Assembly (NCBI GenBank): GCA_965203805.1
Contig: OZ241917.1
Span: forward strand, 3,392,001 to 3,456,000
DNA length: 64,000 bases
Source: Candidatus Latescibacterota bacterium
GTDB lineage: Bacteria; Latescibacterota; UBA2968; GCA-2709665
Direction of reading: 5' to 3'
Each line of letters opens with the position of its first letter. Position 1 is the first letter of the stretch. The translations under genes and the position numbers were made by a program. Below the pieces are notes generated by a model. That model made no database searches. It worked only from the letters and a program-made list of their open reading frames with translations, and was not told the DNA's origin. Below, one piece after another: positions 2,921-61,081 of the stretch.

Positions 2921-3425
2921 TCCTCTGGATGACAGGTTTGGCGAGGGCTCGACCGAAACACTTCGCTTATGACCATTGCAAACCATGTCATTCTGAGCGG
3001 AGCGAAGAATCTCCCGTCTTCAGGGCTTGACGTACAGCGAGAGCCTTCGCCAACCCGTATGCGCGGAGGCATGGTCTCCCTCGCGCCGCCTCAGCATGAC
3101 AGCGAGGGCGAAGACGTGCCGCCTGCCGGGTCACGGCGAATGACAGAACACGCTCAGACATCGAGCGATGCCGCAGTAGATCCTTCGTCAGCCTGCCTGC
3201 CGATGAACCGCTGGCAGGCACAGCGGCTTCCTCTGGATGACAGGTTTGGCGAGGGCTCGACCGAAACACTTTGCTTATGACCACTGCAAAACATGTCATT
3301 CTGAGCGGAGCGAAGAATCTCCCGTCTTCTCGACTTGACGTACAGCGAGAGCGTTTGCCGACCCGTATGCGCGGAGGCATGGTCTCCCTCGCGCCGCCTC
3401 AGGATGACAGCGAGGGCGAAGGCGT
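2921..3425. repeat. Two ~197-bp direct repeats (2921-3117 and 3229-3425) containing REP-like GTCATTCTGAGCGGAGCGAAGAATCT...CTCAG(C/G)ATGAC elements
   Basis: Near-identical units offset by 308 bp; a third partial start (TTCCTCTGGATGACAG) near 3567. Confidence 0.8.
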
Positions 3426-3612
3426 GACGGAACCATTTCGCCGTTCAATGACGTTTATTGAACATTTCCATACGTGGTCATTGAGCTTGTCGAAATGCCC
3501 GTATTCAGGAAGCCCAATTCACGCGAGGCAGGCAGACAGGAATGTCTGCCCCACCATCACAGCGGGTTCCTCTGGATGACAGTTCGGGCGAACGTCCGGA
3601 ACAGATAATTCA

Positions 3613-3642
3613 TTGACAAGAGAGCATGTGACGGGGTATTAT
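3613..3642 (+). promoter_or_regulatory. sigma70-like promoter upstream of the nuclease/helicase pair
   Basis: TTGACA-18 nt-TATTAT. Confidence 0.5.
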
Positions 3643-3688
3643 TCGCAGACGCAAAGTTCAGCCGGCCCGCGGAGACGAGAGAGCGGTT

Positions 3689-6394: not shown

Positions 6395-6395
6395 A

Positions 6396-9836: not shown

Positions 9837-9957
9837 ATCGTGGGTCCATTCGTACGCTCCGTAATGTCGTGAAGGTGTCGGAGCGGAACGGTAGAGAAGG
9901 GGTTCCCAGGCGTTTCTCCATCAGTAATTGTTGTTATCCATCCCGTTGAGAAACCAC

Positions 9958-11142: not shown

Positions 11143-11170
11143 GCGGTCATAAGGCGATCTTCGCACCCGA

Positions 11171-12043: not shown

Positions 12044-12047
12044 CGCC

Positions 12048-40791: not shown

Positions 40792-41352
40792 ATAGAAGCT
40801 ACTTAGAAAATAACATTGGAAACTACGAAACACGCGAAAAAAACGAAAAAACCGTGGCTGATATTAATTGCCACAAGACGCGCAAAACCACAATGTTGCA
40901 GGTCAGCCTGGCAATGCAACGGTTTTCATCATTATGGGTGCCCCAAAGGGGCATGACAACTGTTTTAAAACTCCCAGCGGTCTTCGCGCCTGCCTGCTGC
41001 CGCAGGCAAGGCAGGCGGCTGCAGCCGTCTTCTGTTGAGAATTTCACGTAAAGACCATCCACTGTCAAGATGCCTGGCCCGTTGCGCACGACGCGGGCGG
41101 GCGGGAGAGGTTGTGGCGCCATCCGGACCACGAGGTTGTGCGCCGCACACGCCTCCGCCTGTAATGACCGGATGGACCGCAGGACGACGACCGGGTTCGC
41201 ACGGAGGAGCACCGGTCCAGGGTCGCCCGTTGCGGTCTTTCAACACGCTTTTGACGGTCCATCCGGCGTTTCGGGAGGTCGAGTCTCGACGGTATGATCT
41301 CATTGCCATCGAATAGCTTGCGGCATATCTTGCCCGAGCGAGAAAGACAAAA

Positions 41353-43449: not shown

Positions 43450-43465
43450 TTCCAGTGTTCCTGGC

Positions 43466-43826: not shown

Positions 43827-44288
43827 CTACTCGGTGAATTCGTACACGAGGTCCTCGCCGGACACGCCCGTGATCCGCAGCACAACCTCTCCCGGACCGG
43901 GACCGTAGAACGTCTGGTAGCGGGTCCTGACCAGGCCGAGATCAAAACTGATGGATTCCGTCGGATATGCCTCGCAGGGATCACCGTTCCCGTGATGGGC
44001 GAGGACGGCCGAAAGCTGCACCGGATCCGACTCTCTGAAGGACTTCGAGATCACCAGGGTGAAGACGTGTTTTCGGCACCCGCCGGAGTACGAGACCGAG
44101 AGGTTCAGTTGGTCTCCTTCAACGGCTGCCGAGTTTACGACGTAGGGGTCGTCACCGTAGTCCCGACCGTCGTCGACCACCACGCTGTTTTCAGAGACGA
44201 CCGGCTCAGTCGGAGATTCGCGGCAGCCCGATGCGGCGAGCATTCCGAGCAGGAGTGCGGGCAGGATGGCGCGGTTGAGATCGATCAT
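43827..44288 (-). CDS. Lipoprotein, NigD-C-terminal-like
   Basis: Lipobox ASGC; SVSYSGGCRKHVFTL...DPCEA motif; GAGGAG RBS. Confidence 0.65.
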   Translation of the reverse strand: MIDLNRAILPALLLGMLAASGCRESPTEPVVSENSVVVDDGRDYGDDPYVVNSAAVEGDQLNLSVSYSGGCRKHVFTLVISKSFRESDPVQLSAVLAHHGNGDPCEAYPTESISFDLGLVRTRYQTFYGPGPGEVVLRITGVSGEDLVYEFTE

Positions 44289-44330
44289 GTCGGTCTCCTC
44301 TGTGGTTTGATACGTATCCTGGAAAGTTAA

Positions 44331-44521
44331 CCTTGATTCGTCATTTTTCGGGGACGTTAATTCGAATTTGTGCAAGTGAATAAAGGCGATTTAACTGCTG
44401 ATTTCAATGAACCTTCAGGTCACTGGACGTGAACGGAAGAAATGTGCTTCCGGACGACCTTTTCGGCCCAATTCGAAAGGTTTTGTCGCGACGCCGCGTT
44501 GCTGAATCTGTCGCATTAAGG
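44331..44521 (-). mobile_element. 191-bp MITE-like element, copy C (diverged, inverted)
   Basis: TTAA|CCTTGATTCGTCA...TGTCGCATTAAGG|TTAA; colinear with the reverse complement of copy A. Confidence 0.7.
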
Positions 44522-44646
44522 TTAAATTACGTGCATTACAAATAGTAATTAACGGCATATTTGCAAGTAAGACAAGCGCAGATGCTGTTGTCTGCTTATA
44601 AGTATGCCGTAAACCATTAATTATAAACCACGGCGGATCATCAAGG

Positions 44647-47166
44647 ATGCAGGCGCCCAAAAAAGGTGGCAGATCCGGCTTACTCCGATGGCCGCGCGAC
44701 GTCATTGCCGTCATATCGGCGCTTGCCGCGTTGCTGATCTACTTTCAGTACACGACGCTCTTCAAGTTCGCCGTACTCGGCCCAAGCCATCGGTACGAAA
44801 GCCCGGGCGCATTTCTGCAGGCCGTAAGAATGCAAGTCCCGCTGGATATCGCAGATGCGATTGTGGCGGGCCTGATCCTTGCCGCATTCGTCAGCATCAT
44901 CGTACTGGAACTCCGGAAGAAGCGACTTTCTACGTTTCTTGACAAGGTATTTGAAACCGAGAAACGGACACGCTTCGCGTTGTTTCTGATCTGCCTGTTT
45001 TGCGCCCGGTTCTATTTTGCCCGCGGAGGATTGGCATGGGCCGCTGATGCGAACTTCCATATCGGCTATGCCTGGATTGCCTTTCAGGCCTTCTCACAGG
45101 GCGAAATTCCCATCTGGACGAATTACTTCGGCACAGGAAGTACCTATTGCCAGTTCTATGGGTTTCTCTTCTTCTATCTGACCGGCGCGGTCAATCTGCT
45201 TTTTTCCGATCTGGAGTTCTCGCTGAAGTTCGTGATGGGCGTGAGCCATGTGCTTTCGGGGATCGGGATGTACCTGTTCGTAAGGACACTCTTCAACAGA
45301 CAGGCAGGCTTTATAGCGGCGCTGGCGTACGTGATGTGTGTCTGGCACACGCAGCAGGTCCTCATCATGGGGCGTTACCCGCTCTCGTTGTTTTATGCCG
45401 TGCTTCCCTTTCCGTTCTACTTCTTCGAGAGTCTGAGGATACGTTCGCATAAGTTGGCGTACGCCATGGGAGGCGGGCTGACCCTGGGCATGCTGGCCTT
45501 CACGCATCCGGGCTACGCTTTTTGGGCGACGGCGCTGTTAGCGCTTTACGTGTGCATTCGGCTTTGGATGGGCAGAGGCCGTCACGCGAACCGCCACGTT
45601 TGGCGGCACAGCTTCCTGCTGTTGATGGGAGGCCTGGCCTTCGGAGCGTATCTCACACTTCCGATGTGGTTGGAACGGGAAAACGTCGGACTGGACTCAG
45701 GGGTCAACCTGTCGGGCCTGCCGGATCCAACATGGAGTCAGCTTCTCGTCTGGTCCAACTATCGCTTCAGGCTGTTCTTCATTGAGACCAGACACTGGTA
45801 CGGCGGCTATCTGGGGCTGTCGCTCATCGCGCTGTCCCTGGCGGGTTTGGGTGGTTCGCTGCTGTTGAGAAGGCGTCACGGGAGCCCGCATCCGCACGGG
45901 TCCGCGGAACAGGCAGATTTCAAGATGACGTTGGCTGCAGACCTGCCATCGAAAACGTGGCCGGCAGTTGCATGCCTGGCGGTCTCCTTTTTCCTGGTTT
46001 TCGGGTATCGGTGGCCGTTGGGTTCCCTGAGCGTCGTTCAGGCATTCAACGCCGGACGATACCTGCTCTTTGTTGTCTTCTTCCTGTCCGTGACCGCCGG
46101 CGCGGGTACCGTCGCCCTCGTCCACCTTTGTCGCGGTCGGGGAACGGGCTTCCGAATTTTCACGGTTCTGCTGTTGGTCGTGGTCGCAGATCTGGCGCCG
46201 GCAACCTTTCAACAGCCCTATCTCCCCTACAGTGAGCTGAAACGACCTCAAATCGTTGGTGCCAAAGCAACCCATCTGCTGCGAAGCGAGGCTGCTCAGT
46301 TCCCGAACGGCGAAATTCCCAACTACCGGATCTTCTTTGCTACGGACACTGAATATCGTCCATTTTCCATCTCGTATCTGTCGATCAAGACGGGCCTGGT
46401 GACACTTCTGGGCCTATATAACGAAGCGCCACTCGCCACGAAATTCTTCTGTCATCCTCTGGAGAGATCTTTGAATTCCGCAATCAGGGAGGCGGAGAAA
46501 CTCGAATCTCCAGCAGCTTATGAATTCGGTCCTCTTGGAGATGGGCTTTACCTGTCGAACACAAAGCGCATCATGGCTCACGACGCCACTAAGAAAACAC
46601 TGTTGAACTGGACGATATCGGCTTCTTCCCCCGTGGTCGTCTCCTCGAGGATCGTGAACCGGGATCTCTCGGACTCGAACCATGCAGAGGATCAGGCTCA
46701 GATGGAATTATCGCTTCTCATAGAGGCGATGGGCGTTAACCAGCTGGACAACACATGTGACCGGATTCTATTGACAGGGTATACGGGCAGCTAAGACCTG
46801 GGGACATCGCCTTCCGTGCAGGTAGCTGAGCACCGAACGTGGAATCAACGCGTGGAGATGGTCATCCGCACCTCCAGCCCCTGCTTTGCCCGCCTGGCCT
46901 ATGCCTATTATCCCTATCTCAACGTTACCGTCAGCGGCGAGAAGGTCATGCCATACCAGACGGCCGGGGGGTTTATCGCTCTGCGTTTGAGCGAGGGAGA
47001 GCACCGCATTGTTCTGAATCCGGTCCTGTCTCCACTGAGACGTGGATTGCTCGTGCTGAGCCTGGCGTTCGTTGCCGCCTGCCTTACATGCTTCGGATGG
47101 AGGGCTCGCCACAGTGGGGTCATCCGACGACTCCTCCATAACAACGGCACGGCCCGGCGGAAGTGA
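44647..47166 (+). pseudogene. Polytopic membrane protein (PTPS-related/YfhO-like GT-C type) interrupted by an in-frame TAA at 46792-46794
   Basis: DANFH, GEIPIWTNYFGTG...FYG motifs; ORF 46816-47166 continues in the same frame with a YfhO-like C-terminus (AYYP...V.V.G...GEHRIVL plus TM). Confidence 0.7.
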
Positions 47167-47189
47167 GGGTGCCTGCCGGACAGCAAGAA

Positions 47190-47750
47190 GCTTTCAGCGG
47201 TCAGCATTCGGCAGTCAGCCGTCAGCAATCAGCTTGAGTCAAAAGCGAGAATCAAAAACAAGAGTCAAATTCAACTCACACAGAGACACGAAGGCACGAA
47301 GAAAACCAAAGCGGCCAAGAGCGAACCGCCCCCAGCCCCGCAAACCTCTCCCCCCGGCCCCCTCTCCCGGGGGGAGAGGGGGAGACAACCTGCTTCAACG
47401 GGGCGACGATAAGGCCTGGCGACATGGCCTCCCTGATGCGCAGACCTATCCCCCCTGCCTGCCGAAAAACCACCGCCAGGCAGGGACCCTTTCCTATAAG
47501 GAAAGGGTAACGAACGCCACGTGATAGGATCCGGGGGTGACCCTTCCGTCGGGAAGGGCGTAGGTCTCGAAAAGGGTAGACGTGAGACGGGAGATGATGT
47601 CAGTGCCCTATGGTTTTTCCAGTCGTTACCATTTCGGCAAAAAAACAGGCACGGTTAGCGTGAAAACACTGTGGTAACGTTATCATCTACCCTCTCACCG
47701 CTTTCAGGTTTTCATTCTTCCTTTTTCCCGTCTACCTTCTTACCGCCTTT
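47190..47750. repeat. Mosaic intergenic repeat block; related blocks at ~53930-54190, 54845-55870, 56870-57770, 60110-60985
   Basis: Shared modules: TCAGC heptad runs, CCCCTCTCCC...GGGAGAGGGG palindromes, GCGCAGACCT...GATAGGATCC, AGGCACGGTT...CATCTACC. Confidence 0.8.
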
Positions 47751-47867
47751 AGAATCGTCGCCGTAAGTGTCCCGTGCCTGAAATATGTCGCCCTTCATCC
47801 GCGGATTCATCCCGTCTCGCTACGATGGGCCGAATCCACAGATAGCCTCTTCATTATACGGATTTTC

Positions 47868-47896
47868 TTGACAGCATCTCTAGATTTAGTTACAAT
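47868..47896 (+). promoter_or_regulatory. Near-consensus sigma70 promoter
   Basis: TTGACA-17 nt-TACAAT. Confidence 0.7.
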
Positions 47897-47901
47897 CTGG
47901 T

Positions 47902-47964
47902 ATCCTCCCTCCAGAAGAATCACTCTGGAGCCCCCGGATTCCCAAGTGGGTCCGGGTTTTTTTT
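47902..47964 (+). ncRNA. Candidate ~63-nt sRNA with 5' anti-SD sequence
   Basis: Strong promoter, then ATCCTCC, hairpin CTCCAGA/TCTGGAG, terminator CCCGGAT...GTCCGGG-T8. Confidence 0.55.
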
Positions 47965-48212
47965 GTTATCCATCCGCGATAAGCCTCCCGGTGTCTCCAA
48001 TTCTCACTGCGCATAGCCACATGACGTGCCAGATCGGCGGCCGCATTATGCCTTTATGGCATCATAGGAATAATGATATGTCATTTTGGCATATATCGCC
48101 CGGTAAGTTATCCCTATTGCATCGTTCAAGTGGTTTGATTCTGCCGGTGGATTTTCCCTAACTATTTATAATATATTTGGTTATGTTCATTACACATTGC
48201 GTGGGGCGTAAT

Positions 48213-48227
48213 TGGCACGGGGCTTGC
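48213..48227 (+). promoter_or_regulatory. sigma54 -24/-12 promoter of hsp20
   Basis: TGGCAC-N5-TTGC exact consensus ~100 nt before the ATG; AT-rich tract and two palindromes upstream. Confidence 0.7.
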
Positions 48228-48328
48228 GAATAGTTGTTGGCACAGGCTCGAGGGCGAGCAGGCAGCTCTCGAGACCCGAAAAAACAACCGTTCGTCGGGA
48301 AAACCGTTCATCCAAAGGAGGATTTACC

Positions 48329-48763
48329 ATGACACTCACCAGGTGGCAACCCAGGCGGCGCTTTGGCTTCGTGCCCGAGATCGACCGGTTCTTCGACAGC
48401 TTCTGGAGAGGCCCGCAGCACGACTTTCGCGCGCTGTCCACGTGGAGCCCGGCAACCGACGTGCAGGAGACCGATACGGACCTGCTGGTCCACGTTGAGC
48501 TTCCCGGCTTGTCCAGGAAGGACATCAAGGTCAACATGGAAAACGGCGTGTTGTCGATTCAGGGCGAAAAGCAGAACGCGTCGGAGGAGAAGGAGCATCG
48601 GCATCACGTCTCCGAGCGGACCTACGGCCGCTTCGCCCGGTCGTTCACGCTCCCGTCCGAGGTGGACGCGGAGAAGATCAAGGCCGGATTCGAGGACGGC
48701 GTGCTCACGTTGACGCTGCCGAAAACGAAGGCGTCGGTTGCGCGGGCAATCGAAATCGCGTGA
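48329..48763 (+). CDS. Hsp20/alpha-crystallin small heat-shock protein
   Basis: WSPATDVQET, ELPG, GVLSIQGEK, ERTYGRFARSFTLP, GVLTLTLPK, IEI; AAGGAGG RBS. Confidence 0.95.
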   Translation: MTLTRWQPRRRFGFVPEIDRFFDSFWRGPQHDFRALSTWSPATDVQETDTDLLVHVELPGLSRKDIKVNMENGVLSIQGEKQNASEEKEHRHHVSERTYGRFARSFTLPSEVDAEKIKAGFEDGVLTLTLPKTKASVARAIEIA

Positions 48764-48784
48764 TCAGGCGTCACGTTGACAGAG

Positions 48785-48824
48785 AAAAAGAGACCGACGG
48801 AAACACTGTCGGTCTCTTTTTTTA
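48785..48824 (+). terminator. Intrinsic terminator after hsp20
   Basis: AAAAAGAGACCGAC-loop-GTCGGTCTCTTTTTTT. Confidence 0.8.
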
Positions 48825-49175
48825 TGCGCCTCGAGAGATCAGCCATCAGCTATCAGCCGTAAGCTGTCAGCTAAAGGCGAAAACCAAAATCAAGATCCAA
48901 CCCTCCTCCCTGCCCCAATGGGAGAGGGGGAGGAAAACCGGCCTCACACGGAGGCATGAGCTGTCAGAAAAAAACAAAAAACGAATCCCGTGACGTCAGC
49001 GGTATACGGACGTGCGGTTTTCCTGCATCCGGCTCTCGGACAAGGATTCATGCAGTCGGCCATGGGACGTTCTGTGGCGCCATCTCCAACTGGACCACGC
49101 GCACCCTATCGTAGATCGTCATGCAACTGCGAAACTGTCTATGAGTTGAAAACGAAGTCCAAAGTAACCCCCATT

Positions 49176-50228
49176 TTACCATTGACACTTTGCTGGATTC
49201 AAGTTCCTAATTCCTTTTGTTCCTGATTCACCAAGCACGACTTCGAAACAACCTCCATCCCCACTTCTCAGTAAAGGGTTTTCTATTTCTTTTCCATAGT
49301 GAAATCTATGTCTTGAGGCAAAGGTGTCAACTGGTCCCTCGACAAACCACCTTCCATGCCTTCTTCCATAATTCATCTCGCCCGAACCGATTCGTATCGT
49401 TGTATCCTCAATAGTGTGTCCCTCAACCAGTCGAATCTTACCATAAATGGTTGTGTGCAACTTTCCCTTGCCATGTGGTATCCGCCCTGGGCATTCACCA
49501 AACCAGGAAGCTATGATTTCTGCATTGTTATGATCCCACAAGTAACAATTGTCTGGTTCTTTTAATAACTTCCAACAAGGTTCCCGTTTATGTTCCTTTC
49601 CACAAATGTCCTCTGGACGAATGGTTAAGGGATTTATTAGTTTTCGTCCTATTTGAAGTGGGTCTTTCTGTCCCTTCTTTACAACCCGGACCGATTTTTT
49701 CGGCGTAGGTATTCTGTCAATTTCTAGTTTAAACCAAAACTGATACACTTCAAGTGCGCCATCTATCAAAAACACTGCTCGAAATCCCAATTCCGGTTCA
49801 TGAAATTTTCCGGTTGTTAATTGGCCTATCAACCATAGTCTACCAAATTCCCCAAAGGCCACTTTTTCATCTGGGTCTGATAAGTCCAATGCTTGACCAA
49901 CGGGGAGTATTCGAACGGGAAATAAGGTATCCTCAGTATCTCCGGTTTCGAACGGATCACCTGTAAAATCAGTCAGGTATGATTTTTCCTGAATATAGAA
50001 TATGTCTTGTTTTAAACGATTGCGAATTTCAATAGCCAATTGATCATTTTCTACCAAACGAAAACTGATGGTAAATGCTTCTGTTCTGAATCGCGGATAG
50101 ATCCCTTTTAAGATCTCACCCTTTTCCGGTAACGAAACAACTCGAATCAGATCCAAAGTTTGTACTGTATCTACAGTCGCACATCCGATTAATGTAAAAG
50201 CAGCCCACGCTCTTATCCAATAAGCCAT
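49176..50228 (-). CDS. AT-rich hypothetical lipoprotein with MORN-like C-terminal region
   Basis: Lipobox LIGC; WFGECPGRIPHGKG, GEMNYGRRHGRW. Confidence 0.55.
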   Translation of the reverse strand: MAYWIRAWAAFTLIGCATVDTVQTLDLIRVVSLPEKGEILKGIYPRFRTEAFTISFRLVENDQLAIEIRNRLKQDIFYIQEKSYLTDFTGDPFETGDTEDTLFPVRILPVGQALDLSDPDEKVAFGEFGRLWLIGQLTTGKFHEPELGFRAVFLIDGALEVYQFWFKLEIDRIPTPKKSVRVVKKGQKDPLQIGRKLINPLTIRPEDICGKEHKREPCWKLLKEPDNCYLWDHNNAEIIASWFGECPGRIPHGKGKLHTTIYGKIRLVEGHTIEDTTIRIGSGEMNYGRRHGRWFVEGPVDTFASRHRFHYGKEIENPLLRSGDGGCFEVVLGESGTKGIRNLNPAKCQW

Positions 50229-50353
50229 GCTCACATACCCCTTATCAGTACTGGGGGCTCTATCGGCCCCTCTCCTTTTTCTCCTCACTTTGGTTTATTG
50301 ACTTTTGTCCACTCTTCAATGAAAACATCCGATTCGGATGCCTCTAACCCGAA

Positions 50354-50728
50354 CTATTCACGAGTTGTAATATCTTCACCCGCATAGTATCCCAAAGGTC
50401 TTTGTCTATTATATCCGGAACCTGCTACAGCGATATCTAAACGCCCATCACCATTTAAGTCCCCAATATCGAAATCCTGGGCAGTGAAGAAAGTTGTATG
50501 GTCCTCCCAAACCTTTTCCAACTCATCATCAATAATTCGAAACTGGGTCAAACCCGCGAAGGTAGATGGATTAAATTCACGTTTCCAAAAACAGATCAGA
50601 TTTTCAAAACCATTTTCGTATTTCCAGGCTACCTTAATTGTCCCTTCCGGAACATTGAAATGATGTGTCTCGGCCGAAAGGGAAGTGCTCCAGAATATCC
50701 CAACGAGAGCCAACACGAGTCGCATCAT
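50354..50728 (-). CDS. Short secreted FG-GAP/VCBS-repeat protein, probably truncated
   Basis: AGGAGG RBS, signal peptide, single GDLNGDGRLDIAV repeat. Confidence 0.55.
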   Translation of the reverse strand: MMRLVLALVGIFWSTSLSAETHHFNVPEGTIKVAWKYENGFENLICFWKREFNPSTFAGLTQFRIIDDELEKVWEDHTTFFTAQDFDIGDLNGDGRLDIAVAGSGYNRQRPLGYYAGEDITTRE

Positions 50729-51228
50729 TAACCTCCTATATTAGTAATCTTAAGTAAATTCAGTTTTGTAATCAATAGACCGAACTGAAGCTACTGAGTC
50801 ATACGCTCAGGGGGTCGTCCTGGTAGCTGGTAAATCCGACTTATCGCCTGGGTGTCAAAATCGGTTTTAAATTAGACAGAAACGACGGTTTAAAAATGGA
50901 CACTTCCGTGTAAGATCGCTGCAATACGCAACGAAGCCCTGCCTGTGCTTATAGTAGGGATATCCACACATATCCCAAAAAGCACAGGAGGGCTCGTACC
51001 CATGATATTAAGGGAGATGTCCATGCAGATCAAGTATTTGAGTGATGTTAATGATCGCCCATATGCGGCCAATGCGGGATCGGCATAATGAGGCCAGCTG
51101 AAGATCGCCCTAATGGGGCCACTTCAGGATCGGCCTAATGAGGCCACCTGGGATGCGATAAAGGTTTCGGACTATCCGGCAACGGTTCTACCTTCTTTCT
51201 GTCTCCCCGACAGTCAGGAGGGAAGGAC

Positions 51229-52802
51229 ATGGCCAACCGGAGGTTTGAGATGTATCAGTATCGCCAGGTATTGACGCGTATGCGGTTGGGCGATTCGGAT
51301 CGTGCGATCGCCCGTTCCGGGTTGATGGGTCGGCGGAAGGCCGGCGCGCTTCGTGAAGTGGCAGGCCGTGAGGGATGGCTGGACGCTTCCAACGTGTTGC
51401 CCGATGATGCCACGCTGGTGCAGGTGGTTCAGGTTCCAACCTCGCGGCCTCAGTCGGCCTCGTCGGTTTTGCCCTACCAGGACAAGGTGACAGCTTGGTG
51501 GCGTGAGGGTATCCGGGGTACCGTCATCCACCAGGCGTTGGTGGACACCTACGGCTATGCTGGCTCGTATGCTTCCATCCGTCGTTTTCTCCAGCAGCTC
51601 AAAGACGCTCATCCCGACGTCACCACCGTGTTGGACTTCGATCCGGGCGACGTGGCGCAGGTGGACTTCGGGCGGGGTCCCACGATAGAGGACGTCTTCA
51701 CCCACCAGACCATCGCGACGTGGATCTTCGTGATGGTACTGGCCTGGTCTCGCCACCAGTATGCCGAGATCGTGCCGGACCAGAAGGTCGAGACGTGGCT
51801 TTCCTGCCACAGAAGCGCCTTCGAGTTCTTCGGCGGAGTCCCGGCACGCGTGGTGATCGACAACCCCAAAAACGCCATCACCAGGGCCTGCTACCACGAT
51901 CCGGAGGTGCAGCGCGCCTACGGCGAGTGCGCCTGCCTGCGTCCCTCGGACAGGCAGGCCGAAGGCTATGGCTTCACCATCTCCCCGTGCCCCGTGCGAG
52001 ACCCGAAGAAGAAGGGGCGCGTGGAGGCGGCCGTGAAGGTTGTCAAGCGCAGCTTTGTTCCCCTGCGCCAGTTCCGTGACATCAGAGATGCCAACCGGCA
52101 GTTGCAGGACTGGATCCCGGGGTGGCCGGTAACCGCATTCACGGCACCACCCACGAACGACCCCTGACACGCTTTGCACAGACCGAGCGCGAGTTCCTCA
52201 AGCCGTTACCCGCCATTCCACCTGAGCAGGCGGCCTGGGCCAAGGTGAAGGTTCACGGCGACTGCCACGTCCAGTTCGAGAAGTGTCGATACTCCGTGCC
52301 CTATGCCCTGGTGCGCCAACAGCTCTGGTTGCGGGCCAGCCCAAAAACCGTGAGGATCTACCAGAACCACAACATGGTGGCCGTTCATCCCCGTAAAAAC
52401 ACACCTGGTGCACGCGCGACCGTTACCGAACATCTGCCGCCAGAGGCGCGCGCTTTCCTGATGCGCGATCCACAATGGTGCCTCAAACAGGCACAGCGTA
52501 TCGGTCCTTCCTGCCACCGCCTCATCAAGACCCTCTTCTCCGATCGCGTGCTGGACAACCTCCGCGCGGCGCAGGGCATCATCCGACTTTCCGAACGCTA
52601 CGGCGCAAGGCGCCTTGAGGCCGCCTGCGACCGCGCCCTGGCCTATGACAACCCCCGCTACCGGAGTGTGAAGAGCATCCTCGAAAAAGGTCTGGACCAA
52701 CATAAGCATCCAGACGAGACGTCCACAGACCCGCACACCCTCGCGTCAGCCTATACGGGAGAGGGACGTTTCTGTCGCGATGCCACAACCCTCTTCAGCT
52801 AA
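51229..52802 (+). pseudogene. istA: IS21 transposase IstA, frameshifted near 52115 and carrying a 27-nt in-frame insertion
   Basis: AQVDFG, FGGVP, DNPK, KGRVE in one frame; NRIHGTT, YSVP in a second frame. Confidence 0.85.
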
Positions 52803-52821
52803 AAAACGGGAGAACAACAAA

Positions 52822-53601
52822 ATGAACCCCATGCCTGAACTTGCCCCCATGCTCATAAGACTGCGCCTGTCCGGCATCCTTGAGACTCTGCCTGCCAGAA
52901 ACCAGGAAGCCATCGACAACAAACTCGCTTACAGCGAGTTCCTCGCCCTGCTTGTCCAGGACGAGGTCGCACGCAGAGAACACAAAAAGTTCAACCTGCG
53001 CCTGCGACGCGCGGGCTTCCGCGGCGAGAAAACCCTCGAGGGCTTCGACTTCGCCTTCAACCCCGCCATCAATCAGGCCTTCATCAAGGACCTGGCCACC
53101 TGTGCCTTCATCAAGGAAAAGGTCGCGGTACTGATTGCAGGACCCTGCGGCACTGGCAAAAGCCACATCGCACAAGCCCTGGGACACCTCGCCGTCAGAG
53201 CCGGCTACGACACCCTGTTCACCACACAAACCAAGCTGTTGGGACAACTCCACGCAGCCCGCGCCACAGATACCTTCCAGCGGCGCTTCCACAATGTTGT
53301 CAAAACCCCGCTGCTCATCATCGATGACTTCGGCCTCAAACCCTTAACGCCGCCACACGACGAGGACTTCCACGACCTCATCTCTGAACGCTATGAACGC
53401 GCCGCCACCATCGTCACCTCTAACCTCGACTTCTCCGAATGGGGCGACGCCTTCACCAATCGACTCCTCGGTGCCGCCACCCTCGACCGTCTCAGACACG
53501 GCGCCTATCGCGTCATCCTCGACGGCGAAAGCTTCCGTGCACCTAAACCCCTACCACAATCACCAAAAAAACACCTTGGAAAGGAGGCCCAAGAACACTA
53601 A
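52822..53601 (+). CDS. istB: IS21 helper ATPase IstB
   Basis: GPCGTGKSH, LLIIDDFG, TSNL, LDRLRH, GESFR. Confidence 0.9.
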   Translation: MNPMPELAPMLIRLRLSGILETLPARNQEAIDNKLAYSEFLALLVQDEVARREHKKFNLRLRRAGFRGEKTLEGFDFAFNPAINQAFIKDLATCAFIKEKVAVLIAGPCGTGKSHIAQALGHLAVRAGYDTLFTTQTKLLGQLHAARATDTFQRRFHNVVKTPLLIIDDFGLKPLTPPHDEDFHDLISERYERAATIVTSNLDFSEWGDAFTNRLLGAATLDRLRHGAYRVILDGESFRAPKPLPQSPKKHLGKEAQEH

Positions 53602-54192
53602 TTATATGCCCCTTCCGAAACCCTGAAATCGACACTTCCAGGTGGCTCCATTATGCCGATCATGGGTGGCCTCATTAGGGCGATCCGTGACAAGTGAAGA
53701 CGGTGTTCCGAAGGCACGGATTGCCCGACAGTTGGGCGTCTCACGGCAGACGGTGTATAACCACCTGAACCGTGAGGGGGTGTTTCGCAAGGTGAGGGCG
53801 CCACGCGCCACGAAGCTGGATGCGTATAAGGGCGTGATCCGGACGCGTCTGGAGCAGTTCGATTTGCCCGGGACGGTGCTGTTGCGGGAACTGCGTTTGC
53901 AAGGCTATACCGGTCACCGGTCTTACGCGACCTCTCCCCCCGGCCCCCTCTCCCGGGGGGAGAGGGGGAGACAACCAGGAGACGCGTCCGGTGGTGTGGA
54001 AGGGGCTGTTGTTCGCGTCAAAAACCGCCGCTCACCATCAGCCACGAACGCAGTTCCAACGGGTGTATATCCGCCGGCAGGCGACCTGTCAGGACACGAT
54101 GGAAAAACCGCACGAGGACCAACCGGTTTCCATTCTTCCTTTTTCGTTCTTCCTTTTTCATTCTTCCCTTTCCCGTCTCACCTGGGAGAGGG

Positions 54193-54522
54193 TTAAGTCT
54201 CAATGTCCAACGCGACGGCGAGCGCATTGTCGAGTTCGCGGACCTTATTGGGAGACAGGGTGCCGATAAAGCGGGTCAACGCGGACTTGGGAATGCTGAC
54301 CAGTTGGTCGCAGAAGATGCTGCTGTCATGCTTCAGGCCTTCGTTCGCCCCCACGGGGACCTGGGAGGAAAGGCCGTCAAAGGAGGAAAAGACCGGAGCA
54401 CAGACAACGGTCGAGAACTTCGAATCGATGAGAGCCTGGCGGCTGACGATGACAAAGACGCGATAGTCCCGGGGGTCCTCGCGCGACCCCTTATAGACCC
54501 TGTAGAGTTCCCCGCGCGTCAC
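54193..54522 (-). CDS. PemK/MazF-family toxin
   Basis: [41 protein letters not shown]. Confidence 0.85.
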
Positions 54523-54758
54523 AGATGGGCCTGATAGGCAAGCACGTCATTCGCTTCATCGTTGAATTGCGACGCCTTGCGGTCGAGGATTTCCGCATCC
54601 CGGGAATCCCGAATCCTTCTTCTCAATAGAGCAACATATTGCTTCAACGCGGCCTCCAGGAACGCCGATCGGTTCGTCGGCGTATCGGGCGCACTCAAGA
54701 GGCTGTCCATCTCCCGGACCAGCCCTTCGGACAGGGTAATCGAGGTTTTGATTTTCAA
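54519..54758 (-). CDS. Ribbon-helix-helix antitoxin
   Basis: KIKTSITLS...[10 protein letters not shown]; AAGGAGG RBS before TTG; 4-nt overlap with the toxin gene. Confidence 0.75.
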
Positions 54759-55876
54759 CGGGACCTCCTTCACCAAATGCAATGGGTAGTATATTTATCT
54801 TACTAAAAGTAGTATAAATGGAGGCTTTTATCAAGAAGATTGGCTATCGGCTTTCAGCAGTCAGCCATCAGCAATCAGCTTGAAGCAAGAGCGAGAATCA
54901 GCTCACACAAAGACACGAAGACACAAAGAAAACCAAACCAGAATCCAGCAGTCAGCTAAAAGCAAAAACGAAGACCAACAAGCCGCAAATCAAATTCAAC
55001 ATCCACATCTCCCCAAATTCCCTGCCTACGGCGTGTTCCTTTTGAAGCGACCAAAAGGAACCAAAAGTCGCCACTGGGCGTGGGGCCTGCTATATGCATT
55101 GCGCGAACACGCTCACAGGATACACGGGATACGCTGGCCTGGCACCCTGCGTAGCACGTCGGGCCGCGTCGCTGGACGGAACCGCGCGCTCTGCTCTGGG
55201 TGCCCTCCGGTCGGGAAATGCTCTTCGTAGACCGATGAGTGCCTTGATGATGAGCACAGCGGTTAGCTCTCAGCGATCAGCGTGAGTCAAGAGCGCCCTC
55301 ACCCCCAACCCCGCAGACCTCTCCCCCCTGCCTGCCGAAAAACCACCGCCAGGCAGGGACCCTCTCCTGTGAGGAGAGGGTAACGAACGCCACGCGATAG
55401 GATCCCGCTATCCCCCTTCCTTGCAGGAAGGGGGATAGCGGGTAGGTTGGTGGGGGTGGGACCGGAAGCGCATAATTGTCAAGATCGCAAATGCATCAAA
55501 CCTCGCGCAGTTCACTCAAGCGCACGGCGGTGTGGAAGGGGCTTTTCCGCGCGAGTCCGTCCAGCAACGTCGTGCGGGAATGCCTGCGAGGGTTTCAGGG
55601 CAACGTCTCCCGGTGTCTCCACTGAAGCGGTTCGCGGAAAAGCAGCCCCGCGGCGTTTGAGCGGCACGCTTCTTTTTGGTCCTTTTTCTTACGTGGATAA
55701 GAAAAAGGACGAAGAGAAAATGAAAGTTGGTGGGAGAGGTTAAGTTTCGGTCCCCCAGGAGGTTAGTTCCAACGGGTGTATGTCCGCCGACGGGCATTTT
55801 TTCGGGATGTTATGGACAATCCCCACGAGGATCAACCCGTTTCCGTTCTTCCTTTTTCCTTCTTCCTTCTTCCCTT

Positions 55877-56851
55877 TTACGTCTCCCCGCCTTTAACCAT
55901 CGGTCCCATCGCCTGGATGTGCTCCGGGCCGGTCGCGCAGCAGCCGCCGATGATTTGCGCGCCCATGGCCTTCCACTGGCCGGCGTACGCGGCAAGCCGT
56001 TCGGGCGTGTTGTCGCCCCACTGCAGGATTTCGGCCGGCCCATCCGGAGATTCCGCGGATTCCAGGGGCGCGAGCGGACGATATCCGATATTCGGATACG
56101 CGCCAACGCAGCCGTCGAAGGCCTGCCTGAGTAGCGGAAGTCCGGCCGAAACCTCTTCCGGCGCCGTGCACATGATCAGGACCCCGGTGACGCCACGAAA
56201 GCCCAGCGCGTCGACGAGGTCCTCAAGGCGTTCTTCGTATTGCATGGTCCCGTCTTCCCGGATATGCCGGATACCCAGAAACACCGGCAGGCCTGTCTCC
56301 GCGCACGCATCCGCGGCCGCCACGCAGTCGGCGATATGTCCGATGTACTCCACCCAGATCGCGTCTACGCCGACCCCGGCAAGCAGCCTGGCATGGTCGC
56401 CGATCTCCTTCCGGTACGCCTCGGCTCCCATGATGTCCACGTCGGGCGGGGTTCCTTCGGCGCGCCGCTGAAGACACGGCGCCGAGATCCCGCCGGCGAC
56501 AAACGCACCCGGCTTGACCGCATCGCGCGCGGCGATCGCGTTTTCCCCTGCCGCGCGGGCGTACGCCTCCCACCGGTCCCCGAGTCCGATGGGCGTCATT
56601 CGGGCAGGGCTCGTCCAGAAGTTGTTGCTGATGATGATATCGGCGCCCGCGCGGAGGTAGTCGGCGTGGACTTCCCTGACCGACTCCGGCGCGTCGATAT
56701 TGGCCGTGGCCGACCAGGCCTGGAGTCCGCCCTCGGCCGTTGCGCCTTTCAACACGTCGACGCCTCTCCGTTGCAACTCGGAGCCTGTTCCTCCGTCCAG
56801 GAGAAGCGTCTCCCCGCTCTCGATCCGATCCGCAATTCGTTTTGAAGACAT
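55877..56851 (-). CDS. Homocysteine S-methyltransferase family protein
   Basis: LLDGGTGSEL, VHADYLRAGA, IMC, AYPN, IIGGCC..GPEHI. Confidence 0.9.
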   Translation of the reverse strand: MSSKRIADRIESGETLLLDGGTGSELQRRGVDVLKGATAEGGLQAWSATANIDAPESVREVHADYLRAGADIIISNNFWTSPARMTPIGLGDRWEAYARAAGENAIAARDAVKPGAFVAGGISAPCLQRRAEGTPPDVDIMGAEAYRKEIGDHARLLAGVGVDAIWVEYIGHIADCVAAADACAETGLPVFLGIRHIREDGTMQYEERLEDLVDALGFRGVTGVLIMCTAPEEVSAGLPLLRQAFDGCVGAYPNIGYRPLAPLESAESPDGPAEILQWGDNTPERLAAYAGQWKAMGAQIIGGCCATGPEHIQAMGPMVKGGET

Positions 56852-57768
56852 TTCTTCCTCCTTCTCGTAAGTCAGCGGTCAGCCATCAGCATTCAGCTTG
56901 AGTCAAGAGCGAGAATCAGCTCACACAAAGACGCGAAGACACAAAGGAAACCAAACCAGAAACCAGCAGTCAGCTTGAAGCAAAAGCGCCCTCGCCCCCA
57001 GGCCCGCAGACCTCTCCCCCCAACCCCCTCTCCCGGGGGGAGAGGGGGAGTAGAATCAGCCTGAAGCCGTCAGCATGAAGCGAAAGATTAGAATCAAATT
57101 CAACATCCACATCTCCCCAAATTCCATAAAGGCGGGGAGACGGGAGAGGTGAGACGTGAGATGATCACTCGCGGCCACGGGACGACGATATGGCCGGGCG
57201 AGACCTCCTCCCTGATGCGCAGACCTCTCCCCCCTGCCTGCCGAAAAACCACCGCCAGGCAGGGACCCTCTCCTATAAGGAAAGGGTAACGAACGCCTCG
57301 CGATAGGATCCCGCTTTCCCCCTTCCTCACAGGAAGGGGGTAGGTCTGAAAGGCGGGGAGAGGGAAGACGTGAGACGGGAGATGATATCAGTGCCTTATG
57401 GTTTTTCTTGATTGTTACGATATCGGTAAATAATCAGGCACGGTTTATGTAGAAACACAGCTGTAAATGTCTTCATCTACCGTCTACCCTCTTACGTCTC
57501 ACCGCCTTCAACTACCGTCTACCCTCTCACCGCTTTTTGAAAAGGACGAAGAAGAAAATAGTAAGTTAGAGATGTGAAGTTTGGGACCGCCCGGAACGCT
57601 GTTCCAACGGGTATCTGTCCGCCGCCAGGCGCCCTGTCAGGACATGATGGATAATCCCCACGCGGACCAACCCGTTTTCCTTCTTCCTTCCTCCCTCTCC
57701 CCTCTCACCGCCTTCAGGTTTTCATTCTTAATTCTTCATTCTTAATTTTTCCTTCTTCCTTTCCCGTC

Positions 57769-59031
57769 TCACCGCTCCTGCGCCGGATCGGTTGCCGGTA
57801 GCGTAAATCGCACCCGATCGAACCGCCGCGCCATGGCCATCGCGCGGTCCCGGGCGCCCTCGGGATCCCGTTCGCTGAGCACGTCCAGAATACAGCCGGC
57901 GATTTCGGGGGCGTCCGACTCCGTCATGCCGTACCGGGTCACCTCCTGCACGCCGATTCGCAGGCCGTGCCTGCCCAGCCCCTCCGGAGCGCCGGCCGCA
58001 TTGACGAGAATGTGGCACGCTTCCAGCTTTCTGACCAGCGGCCCGCTCTCGCCGAACGCATCCACGACTGGAAGCACCGTGTGCGATTCCGTATAGCCCC
58101 GGTCGGCGCCCACCAACGGCACGCCCTGTTCGTGGAAGGCCCGGCCCAGCGCTTTGGCATTGCCCACGATCGCATCCGCATGCGCCTCCCCGCACGCCAT
58201 CCACTCCAGGAACGTCCCCGCGAGCGACGGCAGGCGGCTCAGGTGATGGTTGGCGATCATCAGCGGGGATATGGCTTTCGCTATCCGCTCCGCGACGTCA
58301 CGGTCGTTGGTCAGGACCATCCCCCCCTGCGGCCCGGCCAGCGTTTTGTGCGTGCTCGTCACCATTGCGTCCGCGCCTTCCGCCAGGGGAGACTGAAACC
58401 GCCCGCCCGCAATCAGGCCCATCACGTGGGCCGCGTCGTAAACGAGGAACGAACCGGGACAATAGCGGTCCATCGCCTCCCTCAGCTCCCGGACGGGCTG
58501 GGGAAAGAGGAACTGCGCCGATCCGATGCTCACCAGCGCGGGACGGTGCTCGCGGATCAGCGAAACCGTGCGGTCCAGGTCGATATTGGAATTCAACCCG
58601 TCCCATGGGATCGGAATCGAATTCAGATCCACCTTCAAGCCGGAGTTCGCCAGCTTCGCGGCATACATGTGCCCGTTATGCGCCTCGAGCACCGTATCTC
58701 CAGGACCGGCAAGCGCAAACAGGGCGATCAGGCCGGCGATATTTCCGGACAGGGGTCGCAGGTCCACGTACGCGGCTCCGAAGAGCTGTTTCGCCAGGTC
58801 CTGGGCCATCTCTTCGATCTGCGTCAGAAACGCATTCCCCGGGTACCCCCGGTTTCGCGGATCGATACCGGTATAGGAGCCGTACCTGTGGTCCAGATCG
58901 TTCACGATCAGCCGCTCCACCAGCGGGCTCGGCCGGGTCTCCGACGCAATCAGATTCAGGCAGCGTTCCCGAAACGTCGTATGCGCTTCGACCAGCGTAT
59001 CGATTTCCCGGACCTTGCGGGCGAAATCCAT
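57769..59031 (-). CDS. Serine hydroxymethyltransferase-like PLP enzyme (atypical)
   Basis: LNLIASE, YDAAHVMGLIAGG, TSTHKTLAGPQGG, GLRIGVQEVTRYG. Confidence 0.8.
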   Translation of the reverse strand: MDFARKVREIDTLVEAHTTFRERCLNLIASETRPSPLVERLIVNDLDHRYGSYTGIDPRNRGYPGNAFLTQIEEMAQDLAKQLFGAAYVDLRPLSGNIAGLIALFALAGPGDTVLEAHNGHMYAAKLANSGLKVDLNSIPIPWDGLNSNIDLDRTVSLIREHRPALVSIGSAQFLFPQPVRELREAMDRYCPGSFLVYDAAHVMGLIAGGRFQSPLAEGADAMVTSTHKTLAGPQGGMVLTNDRDVAERIAKAISPLMIANHHLSRLPSLAGTFLEWMACGEAHADAIVGNAKALGRAFHEQGVPLVGADRGYTESHTVLPVVDAFGESGPLVRKLEACHILVNAAGAPEGLGRHGLRIGVQEVTRYGMTESDAPEIAGCILDVLSERDPEGARDRAMAMARRFDRVRFTLPATDPAQER

Positions 59032-59044
59032 GGGAATTTCCCTT

Positions 59045-60091
59045 CTATGTTAACGCATCGATCAGGTCGACTTCGCTGTAAAGCAGCGCCCGCGCAAAGG
59101 CGCCCTGCCCCAGATAGTCGGGCGCATTCCACGCTCCGGGCGCGCAGTAACAGGCCGTCACCAGCCGCTCTCCCAGCCTCACGCTCGAGGGGTACCCCAG
59201 GTCGCTGTCGCCCAGGTCGTCGCATACGATGAACGGACCGCTCCAGCTCCGCCCCCCGTCTTTGCTCACCCGGGCCTGCATGCCGAACGGGTCGTGCCGC
59301 ACGCCGTAGACCATCAGGATCCAGCCGTTGGATAGCAGCGTGAGGTCCGCCGGGTGTTCCCGTCCCCCGGTCACCTCAAGCGGCGCATCCCATGTATGCC
59401 CAAGGTCCGTCGAACGGCACACCGAGATCAAGCCCCCATCGTGGACCGAACGCATTGCGGCGATCAGAACGCCGTCGCCGGTCGAAAGCAGCGCCGTTTC
59501 ATTGTATCCATCGGCAATAAGCGATGGGCGATCCCACGTCCTGCCGCAGTCGTCGGAACGCAGAATATACGCGCAATCGCCCGTGTCGTCTCCTGAAGGG
59601 GTATCGGAGCCGTAAAGGGGCAGCAGCATCGCACCGCCCGGCAGGGTGACGATCCTCCCGAACGCGGAGTGCTTCTCCATCCCCGCGAAGTCCAGGGGTT
59701 CGGAGTCTTGCCAGGTTCGCCCTCCGTCGCGGGAGCGGGTCTGGCGCATCTGCACCCGGCACAACTGCGGCATCCAGCTTCCGTCATCGCCATAGGACCC
59801 CTGTGCGTGGTACGCCAGCACAACCGTGCCGTCGGGCGCCACCCCCACCGCCGGATTCCGGTCGTCCGCACCGGAGTCGACGATCACGACCGGCGCTTCC
59901 CAGGTACGGCCGGCGTCGGGCGAACGAATCGCTTCCAGGCGGCCGGTAACGCCCACGTGACCCGCACCGGCGCGCACTACGGCCAGGATTTCTTCGCCGC
60001 CCACGCTGGCGAGTACCGGGAAATAGCCCCGGTCGCGGCAGATGAGCACCTCGGCGGCCGAAGGAAACCGGCGAAAATCGATCGTGTTCAT
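59045..60091 (-). CDS. Sialidase-like BNR/Asp-box beta-propeller protein
   Basis: Five SxDxGxTW-type boxes; DLGYPSSV. Confidence 0.8.
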   Translation of the reverse strand: MNTIDFRRFPSAAEVLICRDRGYFPVLASVGGEEILAVVRAGAGHVGVTGRLEAIRSPDAGRTWEAPVVIVDSGADDRNPAVGVAPDGTVVLAYHAQGSYGDDGSWMPQLCRVQMRQTRSRDGGRTWQDSEPLDFAGMEKHSAFGRIVTLPGGAMLLPLYGSDTPSGDDTGDCAYILRSDDCGRTWDRPSLIADGYNETALLSTGDGVLIAAMRSVHDGGLISVCRSTDLGHTWDAPLEVTGGREHPADLTLLSNGWILMVYGVRHDPFGMQARVSKDGGRSWSGPFIVCDDLGDSDLGYPSSVRLGERLVTACYCAPGAWNAPDYLGQGAFARALLYSEVDLIDALT

Positions 60092-61081
60092 GGCAAAACC
60101 TCCAAAAGCGGGGAGAGGGGAATAGCAGCAGTCAGCGGTCAGCAGTCAGCCTTCAGCAATCAGCTTGAGTCAAGAGCGAGAATCAAAAACAAGAGTCAAA
60201 TTCAACTTCCACATCTCCCCAAATTCCCTGAAGGCGGGGAGACGGGAGATGATCACTCGCGGCCACGGGACGACGATATGGCCGGGCGAGACCTCCTCCC
60301 TGATGCGCAGACCTCTCCCCCCTGCCTGCCGAAAAACCACCGCCAGGCAGGGACCCTCTCCTATAAGGAAAGGGTAACGAACGCCTCGCGATAGGATCCC
60401 GCTTTCCCCCTTCCTCACAGGAAGGGGGTAGGTCTCGAAAGGGGTAGACGTGAGATGAATGCCCTATGGTCTTTCTCGTCGTTACCATAGTCGGTAAAGA
60501 AACAGGCACGGTTAGCGTGAAAACACTGTGGTAACGTTTTCATCTACCGTCTACCGTCTTACGTCTCACCGAATTTACGCGTGCCGGTCATCTATAGATA
60601 CTCTGATTGACAGGAAATCGCCACCCGGCACATTTGCATGCCCAGTCCATCGACCCGTCACCGTTCCCCCTTCCTCGCAGGAAGGGGGTAGGTTGGTGGG
60701 TCTTTAAACGCTCCAGCGCGCAGGAACATCGCCGTACGGTTCCTTGTAAGTTCCTATCAAGCGAACGGTGGTGGTGTGGGGGGTTTTTCCGTGCAAATCC
60801 GTCCAGCAACATAGTTCCGGCAGGGCTGGTCCGGTGACAGGGCACCCAAATTCCAATTGCGCCACTGAGGTGGTTCACGGAAAAACCGGCCCCGCGCCGA
60901 GCGGCCTGCCTGCGCCGAAGCCTGCTCGGCAGGCAGGCGCCGTTCTTTTTGGTCCTTTTTCTTGGGCGCACAAGAAAAAGGACGTAAGTATAATATTAAT
61001 AACAGGTTATTACGAAAAAAATGACCTCGCGGACCCTGAGCGAAAAATCCCGTTGGTTTTATCCCCGCGTTTTCGGAGACA

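Follow-up and report, generated by a model that had tools for sequence, protein, structure and literature searches.

Single-hairpin elements of 18-36 nt as candidate non-autonomous mobile DNA in Latescibacterota-labelled genomes

Background

Among the repeats described from bacteria, the nearest counterparts of the sequences reported here are the REP and REPIN palindromes, which are associated with RAYT, a HUH transposase of the Y1 type (Bertels & Rainey 2011, PMC3116915; Di Nocera et al. 2013, PMC3733652). As the portions of these two papers used here describe them, they are GC-rich imperfect palindromes of 20-40 nt that reach high copy numbers, lie mostly outside genes and sometimes within open reading frames (ORFs), are non-autonomous and are presumed to be active as folded single strands. 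The same can be said of nine hairpin elements of 27-33 nt in a stretch of 64,000 nucleotides from a Candidatus Latescibacterota bacterium (assembly GCA_965203805.1, contig OZ241917.1, positions 3,392,001 to 3,456,000), hereafter the window, whose genome also encodes a RAYT. Their hosts are repeats of other kinds, a transposase gene and also ordinary genes. They are insertions that leave no detectable target duplication, fold into a hairpin with covarying stems, are copied as whole units and have multiplied in bursts restricted to one lineage. We regard it as probable, with some reserve, that they constitute non-autonomous mobile DNA made of a single hairpin of 18-36 nt, the foot of which is constant and which is copied or moved whole.

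The SDR4-6 repeats of Nostocaceae, reportedly described by Elhai et al. in 2008, are said to be mobile repeats of 21-27 nt that nest in other repeats and, like the elements here, to have a variable centre between conserved flanks, with no enzyme known; they differ in their cyanobacterial host and in sequence. The Rickettsia palindromic elements (RPE) are much longer than the elements here. They too are palindromic and occur in frame within genes that probably still work, and those of R. conorii end in the tetranucleotide CGTC, according to the part of PMC3733652 used here. The same part gives bacterial miniature inverted-repeat transposable elements (MITEs; Correia/NEMIS, Nezha and others) a size of 70-300 bp, terminal inverted repeats (TIRs) of 15-30 bp and target duplications; they share with the elements here the lack of autonomy, the inverted ends and the insertion into other repeats and near genes. 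Small GIY-YIG nucleases of the Ssn type cut single-stranded DNA (ssDNA) next to their own NTS/SRM hairpin repeats (Chenal et al. 2025, PMC11893778, in part). Those repeats likewise are dispersed hairpins of about 30 nt that occur across phyla, with a partner enzyme that acts on ssDNA, is encoded elsewhere, and is associated with them through enrichment in gene flanks and co-occurrence in genomes.

Precise insertion without target duplication

An initial annotation of the window had recognised a family of short palindromes with fixed ends, and the positions it listed are correct to within 1 nt. Four copies are 27 nt long (3192-3218, with the sequence CCTGCCTGCCGATGAACCGCTGGCAGG, 40558-40584, 40989-41015 and 51932-51958) and one, CCTGCCTGCGCCGAAGCCTGCTCGGCAGGCAGG, is 33 nt long (60905-60937). 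A variant given as about 30 nt, CCTGCCTGCCGAAAAACCACCGCCAGGCAGG, is indeed present in four repeat copies (47454-47484, 55327-55357, 57233-57263 and 60321-60351), its actual length being 31 nt and the copies identical and carried in a 209-nt composite repeat. The pattern CCTGCCTGC N5-30 GCAGG matches 13 times in the window, counting overlaps and both strands, against 0.02 expected from 100 shuffles, none of which reached 13, and CTGCCTGC matches 20 times against 1.68 expected. Throughout the window's genome (G000; a single contig of 5.87 Mb with 59% GC) 549 occurrences of CCTGCCTGC contrast with an average of 108 over 40 permuted 9-mers, only three 10-mers are more frequent than GCAGGCAGGC, and CCTGCC N0-50 GGCAGG matches 414 times, compared with 53-115 for five control hexamer pairs. 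The genome-wide pattern search that the annotation had called for yields about 200 elements.

That these are ultra-short non-autonomous insertions, as had been proposed, is borne out by empty paralogs and clean flank pairs. When each of 208 merged element clusters was deleted in silico and the joined flanks were searched against the genome, one or more empty paralogous sites running straight across the junction were recovered for 107 clusters; at an identity of at least 85%, 64 clusters gave clean pairs, covering 37 distinct flank contexts. The insert measures 33 nt in 13 of these contexts, 27 nt in seven and 63 nt in three, the last being composites in which a 30-nt unit is nested in the loop of a 33-nt unit; inserts of 19/20, 30, 36 and 45 nt account for fewer contexts. 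Empty paralogs may greatly exceed filled ones, with up to 26 for a single element. The annotation had allowed at most a 1-nt target duplication, and none at all is detectable in the 37 clean contexts. Identical units recur across 99 distinct flank contexts, in which a G precedes the element in 69, a C follows it in 69, and both hold in 55. Insertion into the loops of pre-existing hairpins is not enriched, since a flanking stem of at least 5 bp is found in 6 of the 99 contexts and at 8% of random sites.

Three empty sites inferred from the window itself were recovered. The element at 40558-40584, whose palindrome runs on to 40588 through a flanking CAGG, lies in copy 2 of a MITE, and where this copy holds the 27-nt insert at 40549, copy 1 runs uninterrupted from 34281 (34281-34296), ATGGATGGA being joined directly to CAGGATG at 34289/34290; its paralogs number seven empty and three filled. 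The repeat that holds the 33-nt insert at 60899 likewise runs uninterrupted from 55659 (55659-55672), with GAGCGG joined directly to CACGCTTC at 55664/55665, and here eight paralogs are empty and seven filled. The element at 51932-51958 (+ strand) interrupts istA of an IS21 copy (istA, istB; 51103-53692, + strand), and its one empty paralog is a second IS21 copy (genome 5442057-5439494, 97.6% identical) that lacks exactly these 27 nt. The 31-nt variant is less informative, the second copy (55327) having four empty paralogs that are weak matches only (78% identity) and the third and fourth copies (57233 and 60321) having one each at only 71-73% identity. For the remaining elements, at 3192, 40989 and 47454, the genome holds no empty paralog: the first lies within a larger repeat with four filled and no empty copies, the second has a unique flank, and the last, the first copy of the 31-nt variant, has no good empty paralog.

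The element at 40989-41015 is instead resolved by the comparison with related genomes that the annotation had suggested. Contigs of two other public runs, X1 and X19, about 96% identical at the orthologous locus, lack exactly this element: in them positions 40547 and 41015 are linked by a stretch of 11 letters that matches window 40977-40987, and therefore exactly 27 nt are missing, in addition to the 429 nt at 40548-40976. All runs were compared as contigs, in which rare filled or empty alleles within one sample are not visible; those that hold the window are labelled as sponge, coral and marine metagenomes. The missing 429 nt correspond to MITE copy 2 together with its own 27-nt insert, and the MITE is therefore polymorphic between populations as well.

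A folded hairpin with a constant foot

All ten forms tested fold as ssDNA into one hairpin, with z-scores of -1.7 to -4.8. The hairpin foot comprises 8-9 bp, (G)CCTGCCT(G)/(C)AGGCAGG(C), and most forms have a bulge of 1-3 nt or a small internal loop next to it; the inner stem measures 2-6 bp and the loop 3-9 nt. When 26 distinct 33-mers of the window's genome and its relatives are compared, the loops differ inside clades, and the inner stems differ between clades and are still complementary (GCGCAG/CTGCGC, GCCGAG/CTCGGC, GCCGCG/CGCGGC). Loop variation together with covarying stems is the pattern expected if the fold, and not the sequence of the core, matters.

Two claims of the initial annotation are not upheld. 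It had taken the cores to be unrelated or only partly related, as a sign of de novo generation; one 33-mer is present 17 times in the genome and the istA 27-nt form seven times, and identical 33-mers are found in several related genomes as well. Since the cores are multi-copy and common to related genomes, de novo generation at each site is not supported. It had also proposed that lengths are multiples of three. The lengths of 101 of 204 strict-ended elements are divisible by three (24 at 27 nt, 2 at 30, 65 at 33, 5 at 36, 4 at 45 and 1 at 54), and common forms of 19, 20, 31, 37 and 43 nt are not; the excess over one third stems from two dominant families and so gives no evidence of a frame constraint. 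The minimal form is represented in the genome by 15 copies of 19-20 nt, and on inspection the 33-mers can be read as such a minimal palindrome of 18-19 nt enclosing an inner hairpin of 14-15 nt.

Distribution across genomes, phyla and viruses

In a survey of the class, the pattern was found in 23 of 132 genomes, nearly all of which belong to the window's own family within the class, here termed f1 (15 of 21 f1 genomes, not counting the window's own, which is the 22nd). Element counts within f1 are 129 in the window's genome and 173, 121, 110, 71, 31 and 17 in the next, the rest being lower; most other genomes have 0-2, among them several of the same genus. Such patchy counts among close relatives fit bursts of a mobile family. 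A scan of a wider collection recovered the same ends in metagenome-assembled genomes labelled Saccharibacteria, Berkelbacteria, Colwellbacteria, Peribacteraceae, Omnitrophota, Bacteroidota and Thermodesulfobacteriota, and a minimal palindrome of 18-20 nt is multi-copy in genomes of the candidate phyla radiation, Omnitrophota, Bacteroidota and Thermodesulfobacteriota. Five genomes of other phyla carry 2, 7, 8, 10 and 96 copies, mainly of 19-20 and 28-29 nt, against none for a reversed control pattern, and the flanks are unique, mostly AT-rich and located between genes. In viral contigs, 35 stretches contain the 20-mer CCTGCCTGCCGGCAGGCAGG without mismatch; among the 104 ORFs within 400 nt of it no family recurs more than about twice, and these ORFs include one GIY-YIG ORF, no Y1 and no DUF559.

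A broader proposal, which we put forward tentatively, is that hairpins of the form CCTGCCTGC...GCAGGCAGG are one cross-phylum, phage-carried family representing the smallest mobile DNA yet seen (18-36 nt), without a linked gene or target duplication, whose enzyme would not be a classical RAYT flanked by REPs and may be an unrecognised small-nuclease or HUH activity. We take the elements of the window to be a lineage-specific, diversified branch of a cross-phylum micro-hairpin family. If the family is real in this extent, then lineages such as f1 would show how elements grow by uptake of an inner hairpin and reach bursts of more than 100 copies.

Elements inside genes

Long ORFs are avoided, 30 of 99 contexts being spanned by a stop-to-stop ORF of at least 300 aa compared with 77% of random sites, a proxy that has little power at 59% GC. 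Open frames that do contain elements are those of a 1246-aa TPR protein and of IS4-like, IS5-like and IS21 transposases, the units being 33 nt long in the first two kinds of transposase and 27 nt in the IS21 istA. The in-frame insertion into ORFs that is described for RPEs is seen here in an open TPR gene and in transposases of three insertion sequence (IS) families. The annotation's claim that the elements are tolerated in coding DNA holds for the TPR gene (genome 3354456-3358193), in which a 27-nt unit adds LPADAGEAG and the frame remains open, giving 1246 aa versus 1232 aa in insert-free orthologs; for istA tolerance is neither demonstrated nor excluded. The insert there amounts to a whole number of codons and adds CLRPSDRQA. 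The empty IS21 copy at 5.44 Mb has a single 537-aa open frame across istA, and relative to it the copy in the window also has a 1-nt deletion near 52118-52123, which splits the frame into 341 and 240 aa. At 52118 the short-read contigs from runs X16 and X1 show one G more, and this frameshift may therefore be an assembly error in a G run, or those contigs may stem from the other IS copy.

The site in the TPR gene is noteworthy in its own right. Orthologs in the related genomes G001 and G008 have other, longer inserts at the same place, which also start with CCTGCCTGCC, and those in G002 and G007 are insert-free there; the frames are open in all four. One site of a conserved protein of 1230-1260 aa therefore carries three different insert loads in three species and none in two others, which makes it either a hot spot or the place of an old insertion invaded again and again.

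Comparison with described systems

With about 200 copies of 19-54 nt and a hairpin in each of the ten tested forms, the elements are palindromes of the REP kind. They differ in that the GTAG/CGTC end tag is missing (a tag lies within 8 nt of 20 of 204 elements versus 17% of random sites), that conservation is symmetrical at both ends, and that the inverted doublets of REPINs are absent, only 2 of 203 gaps between neighbours falling within 20-100 nt and the elements being single hairpins. Nor is there a REPtron, that is, a RAYT flanked by cognate repeats: an element is found in the flanks of one of six loci of the RAYT-A type and of none of five loci of a second type. Further differences are the clean filled/empty pairs of single units and the recurrence of the same ends across phyla and in phages. 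The possibility left by the annotation that this is an already described REP family is therefore not upheld, there being no tag, no doublets and no REPtron. In sum, the elements behave like REPs, SDRs and RPEs, yet fail the membership tests of the REP/REPIN-RAYT system.

From RPEs they are set apart by their 18-36 nt, their lack of a CGTC tag and their mostly intergenic location, the comparison being one of length class and tag and not of sequences. None of 204 elements fits the SRM consensus HGTCWY...RNCYNB as published in PMC11893778; a search with PF01541 found no small single-domain GIY-YIG gene in the window's genome, and NTS/SRM repeats are not reported as precise insertions in the part of that paper used here. 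Compared with MITEs, the whole element is smaller than one pair of MITE TIRs and causes no duplication. No Rfam family reaches its gathering score in the window. A literature search, which did not extend to supplementary files, found no description of the element: among the matches listed, GCCTGCCTGC appeared only in eukaryotic or animal-virus work and not in prokaryotic repeats, CCTGCCGGCAGG only in zebrafish work, and none of those for palindromic repeats in Latescibacteria was on the subject by title or abstract.

A possible mechanism

If the elements are indeed mobile single hairpins, the constant part would be a foot of CCTGCCT(G) paired with (C)AGGCAGG, usually followed by an asymmetric bulge of 2-3 nt, and the inner stem and loop would be free to change while pairing is kept. 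The entire hairpin would reach new sites as one unit, by copying or by movement, and leave the target unduplicated; in the window's genome it would settle preferably between G and C, and it would land in other repeats, IS elements, intergenic DNA and occasionally in frame within genes. The forms of 27-36 nt may have arisen from the cross-phylum minimal palindrome of 18-20 nt by acquisition of a 14-15-nt inner hairpin, and may then have spread as families in one lineage of Latescibacterota-labelled genomes. We infer that an enzyme encoded elsewhere would recognise the element as folded ssDNA and would carry out cutting and joining at the foot of the hairpin.

Should one hairpin of 18-36 nt suffice for precise insertion without duplication, it would set a new lower size limit for mobile DNA and would suggest an enzyme able to recognise a single short hairpin foot across many phyla and in phages; an enzyme of this kind could serve as a programmable tool for single-strand DNA. 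The inserts alter the make-up of transposases and of other repeats, and occasionally that of host proteins, and they break short-read assemblies. With more than 100 filled/empty pairs in the window's genome, the rules of insertion are directly testable.

Candidate mobilising enzymes

The annotation had seen no mobilising enzyme, and there is indeed no such gene within the window. Of the candidates encoded elsewhere, a Y1 HUH transposase of the RAYT type comes first, as a possible though doubtful one. The window's genome has one free-standing RAYT (genome 4533512-4534114), which scores 104 bits on NF047646 (cut-off 80) and also matches the TnpA-REP structure PDB 4er8. One element is found 7 bp past the stop codon, so that the motif which the annotation had proposed to look for beside a HUH/RAYT gene is present at this locus, though not at RAYT loci generally. 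The ten f1 genomes (that of the window included) with a RAYT-A ortholog, 77-91% identical to this RAYT, or with the second RAYT type carry 7-173 elements each, and the 12 without either carry 0-10. In other phyla, a Y1 gene is found in four of five palindrome-bearing genomes versus 6 of 14 control genomes.

A small DUF559/Vsr-like endonuclease comes next and is an unlikely candidate. Of the 22 f1 genomes, 14 carry small DUF559 genes, one of which lies at 3336187-3336648 in the window's genome; 12 of these 14 have at least six elements, and none of the eight others has more than two. The annotation's further suggestion of a nuclease gene flanked by the motif is matched in so far as an element lies no more than 700 nt from 6 of 22 such genes, and fails for adjacency in other phyla. 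Chance adjacency is roughly estimated at about 5% from element densities, and several of the six genes lie in repeat-dense DNA.

Small GIY-YIG nucleases were also considered and are not supported in this lineage: in the window's genome PF01541 finds only two proteins of UvrC size and no small gene, small GIY-YIG genes are uncorrelated with element counts across the 22 f1 genomes, and in other phyla a palindrome is nearby at only 1-2 of 15 loci. Four tiny GIY-YIG ORFs of 86-114 aa in other-phyla genomes (loci L203, L204, L212 and L213; genomes G034 and G035) adjoin what by appearance are tRNA-like sequences and partial duplicates, and no CCTGCCTGC palindrome lies within about 260 nt of these genes. 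None of the three enzyme families (Y1, GIY-YIG, DUF559) is present in all five other-phyla genomes.

An autonomous element with the same ends was not found among 390 end pairs 300-6000 nt apart; in only one pair do the ends match beyond 14 nt, and it encloses an ordinary 413-aa gene that on reading has no transposase features. The 27 ORFs with elements on both sides are mostly housekeeping genes of the repeat-dense 3.24-3.47 Mb region, and include one DUF559, one Uma2 and two transposase genes.

The RAYT gene lies in a local repeat array (G000:C1:4532312-4535533) of GTAG-type hairpins with the core GGCAGGGATGCCC, adjoined by a helicase-like ORF. About 14 kb downstream (G000:C1:4546470-4549700) is a 1252-aa open frame that combines DUF1156, a D12-class methyltransferase match and an embedded Y1_Tnp domain, the latter 47% identical to the RAYT. 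The pairing of a RAYT with a frame bearing Y1_Tnp is seen again in G008 and G011; the two Y1 matches of G016 are each placed in an open frame of 1441 aa, which may be one and the same frame.

Weighing the explanations

Several results weigh against the view of the elements as single-hairpin mobile DNA served by an enzyme in trans. Among the families examined no enzyme could be tied to the elements. At the single RAYT-A locus with an element in its flanks, the element is on one side only; the five RAYT-A orthologs in relatives have none within 1.5 kb, the second RAYT type has none at any of its loci in five relatives, and the flanks of the RAYT in the window's genome hold a different local hairpin repeat, 16 of whose 18 copies fall in the gene's 250-kb bin. 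The grouping of genomes by RAYT was made after the counts were known, related genomes are not independent, and RAYT, DUF559 and general repeat load are confounded. Outside f1, one palindrome-bearing genome has no Y1 gene, DUF559 was not found in three of the five such genomes, and in the other two none of seven DUF559 loci adjoins a palindrome. Element orientation shows no bias relative to replichores (14/14 vs 24/31, Fisher p = 0.65), and a single-strand mechanism acting on the lagging strand is therefore not indicated. About half of the copies are within larger repeats, so that part of the copy number is passive, and gene conversion among paralogs could account for some of the filled/empty pairs.

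A homing-like process appears to us unlikely. Here the hairpin would be the recognition or cleavage site of a site-specific nuclease, DUF559/Vsr-like in this genome or small GIY-YIG/Ssn-like elsewhere, and would spread mainly within repeat families, as break repair transfers it from a filled homologous copy to an empty one. It would explain why about half of the elements lie in repeats with both filled and empty paralogs, it agrees with the tracking of element counts by DUF559 presence in 20 of 22 f1 genomes and with the six of 22 small DUF559 genes that have an element within 700 nt, and it has a precedent in the Ssn nucleases, which cut ssDNA beside their own hairpin repeats (PMC11893778, in the part used here). 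Against this, unique DNA and a host gene are among the 99 flank contexts, and repair from a homologous donor cannot create such insertions. The absence of a small GIY-YIG gene from the window's genome (only two UvrC-size proteins with PF01541), the lack of correlation of such genes with f1 counts, their proximity to a palindrome at just 1-2 of 15 other-phyla loci and the failure to find DUF559 in three of five palindrome-bearing genomes of other phyla also speak against it. Minimal MITEs, two TIRs of a DDE insertion sequence set nearly head to head and moved by its transposase, would be suited by symmetrical ends conserved over 9-10 nt around a short, variable interior without autonomy; this reading is very improbable and already largely refuted by the missing target duplication in 37 clean contexts, by the single match beyond 14 nt among 390 end pairs, which encloses a 413-aa gene without transposase features on reading, and by stem covariation that points to a folded single strand and not to double-stranded ends.

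Generation de novo at each site, for instance by template switching or snap-back synthesis, would account for unrelated cores, and the hypervariable loops, the two to four CCTG units at the ends and the possible derivation of 33-mers from a minimal palindrome with an inner mini-hairpin agree with it. It is scarcely credible for the bulk of the copies, being contradicted by the exact recurrence of whole units in numerous unrelated flanks and in more than one genome and by empty sites that have no CCTG seed, and could be retained only to explain how new subfamilies arise. Motifs with a function for the host (protein-binding sites, terminators or uptake signals), kept by selection and not mobile, would be expected to form stable GC-rich hairpins mostly outside long ORFs, as these do (30 of 99 contexts versus 77% of random sites); insertion polymorphism within IS elements, MITEs and genes, nesting of the elements in one another, their presence in phage contigs beside unrelated genes, the lack of any Rfam match and their patchiness among close relatives make this highly improbable. 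The single mobile hairpin copied or moved whole remains the explanation that we prefer.

Genomic surroundings of the window

The elements are unevenly spread over the genome, 57 of 204 falling in one 250-kb bin at 3.25-3.5 Mb. In the region at 3.24-3.47 Mb, which covers window 44000-64000, the spacers between housekeeping genes (S6, L25, Pth, H+-PPase and others) are nested palindromic mosaics, built from several kinds of palindromic modules such as CCCCCTCTCCCCCCGGGAGAGGGGG and CCCCCTTCCCGGGGGGAAGGGGG. At window 47169-47222, 54 nt are replaced in a contig of run X2 by the 11 letters TGCCTGCCTGA, which hold the end motif of the element.

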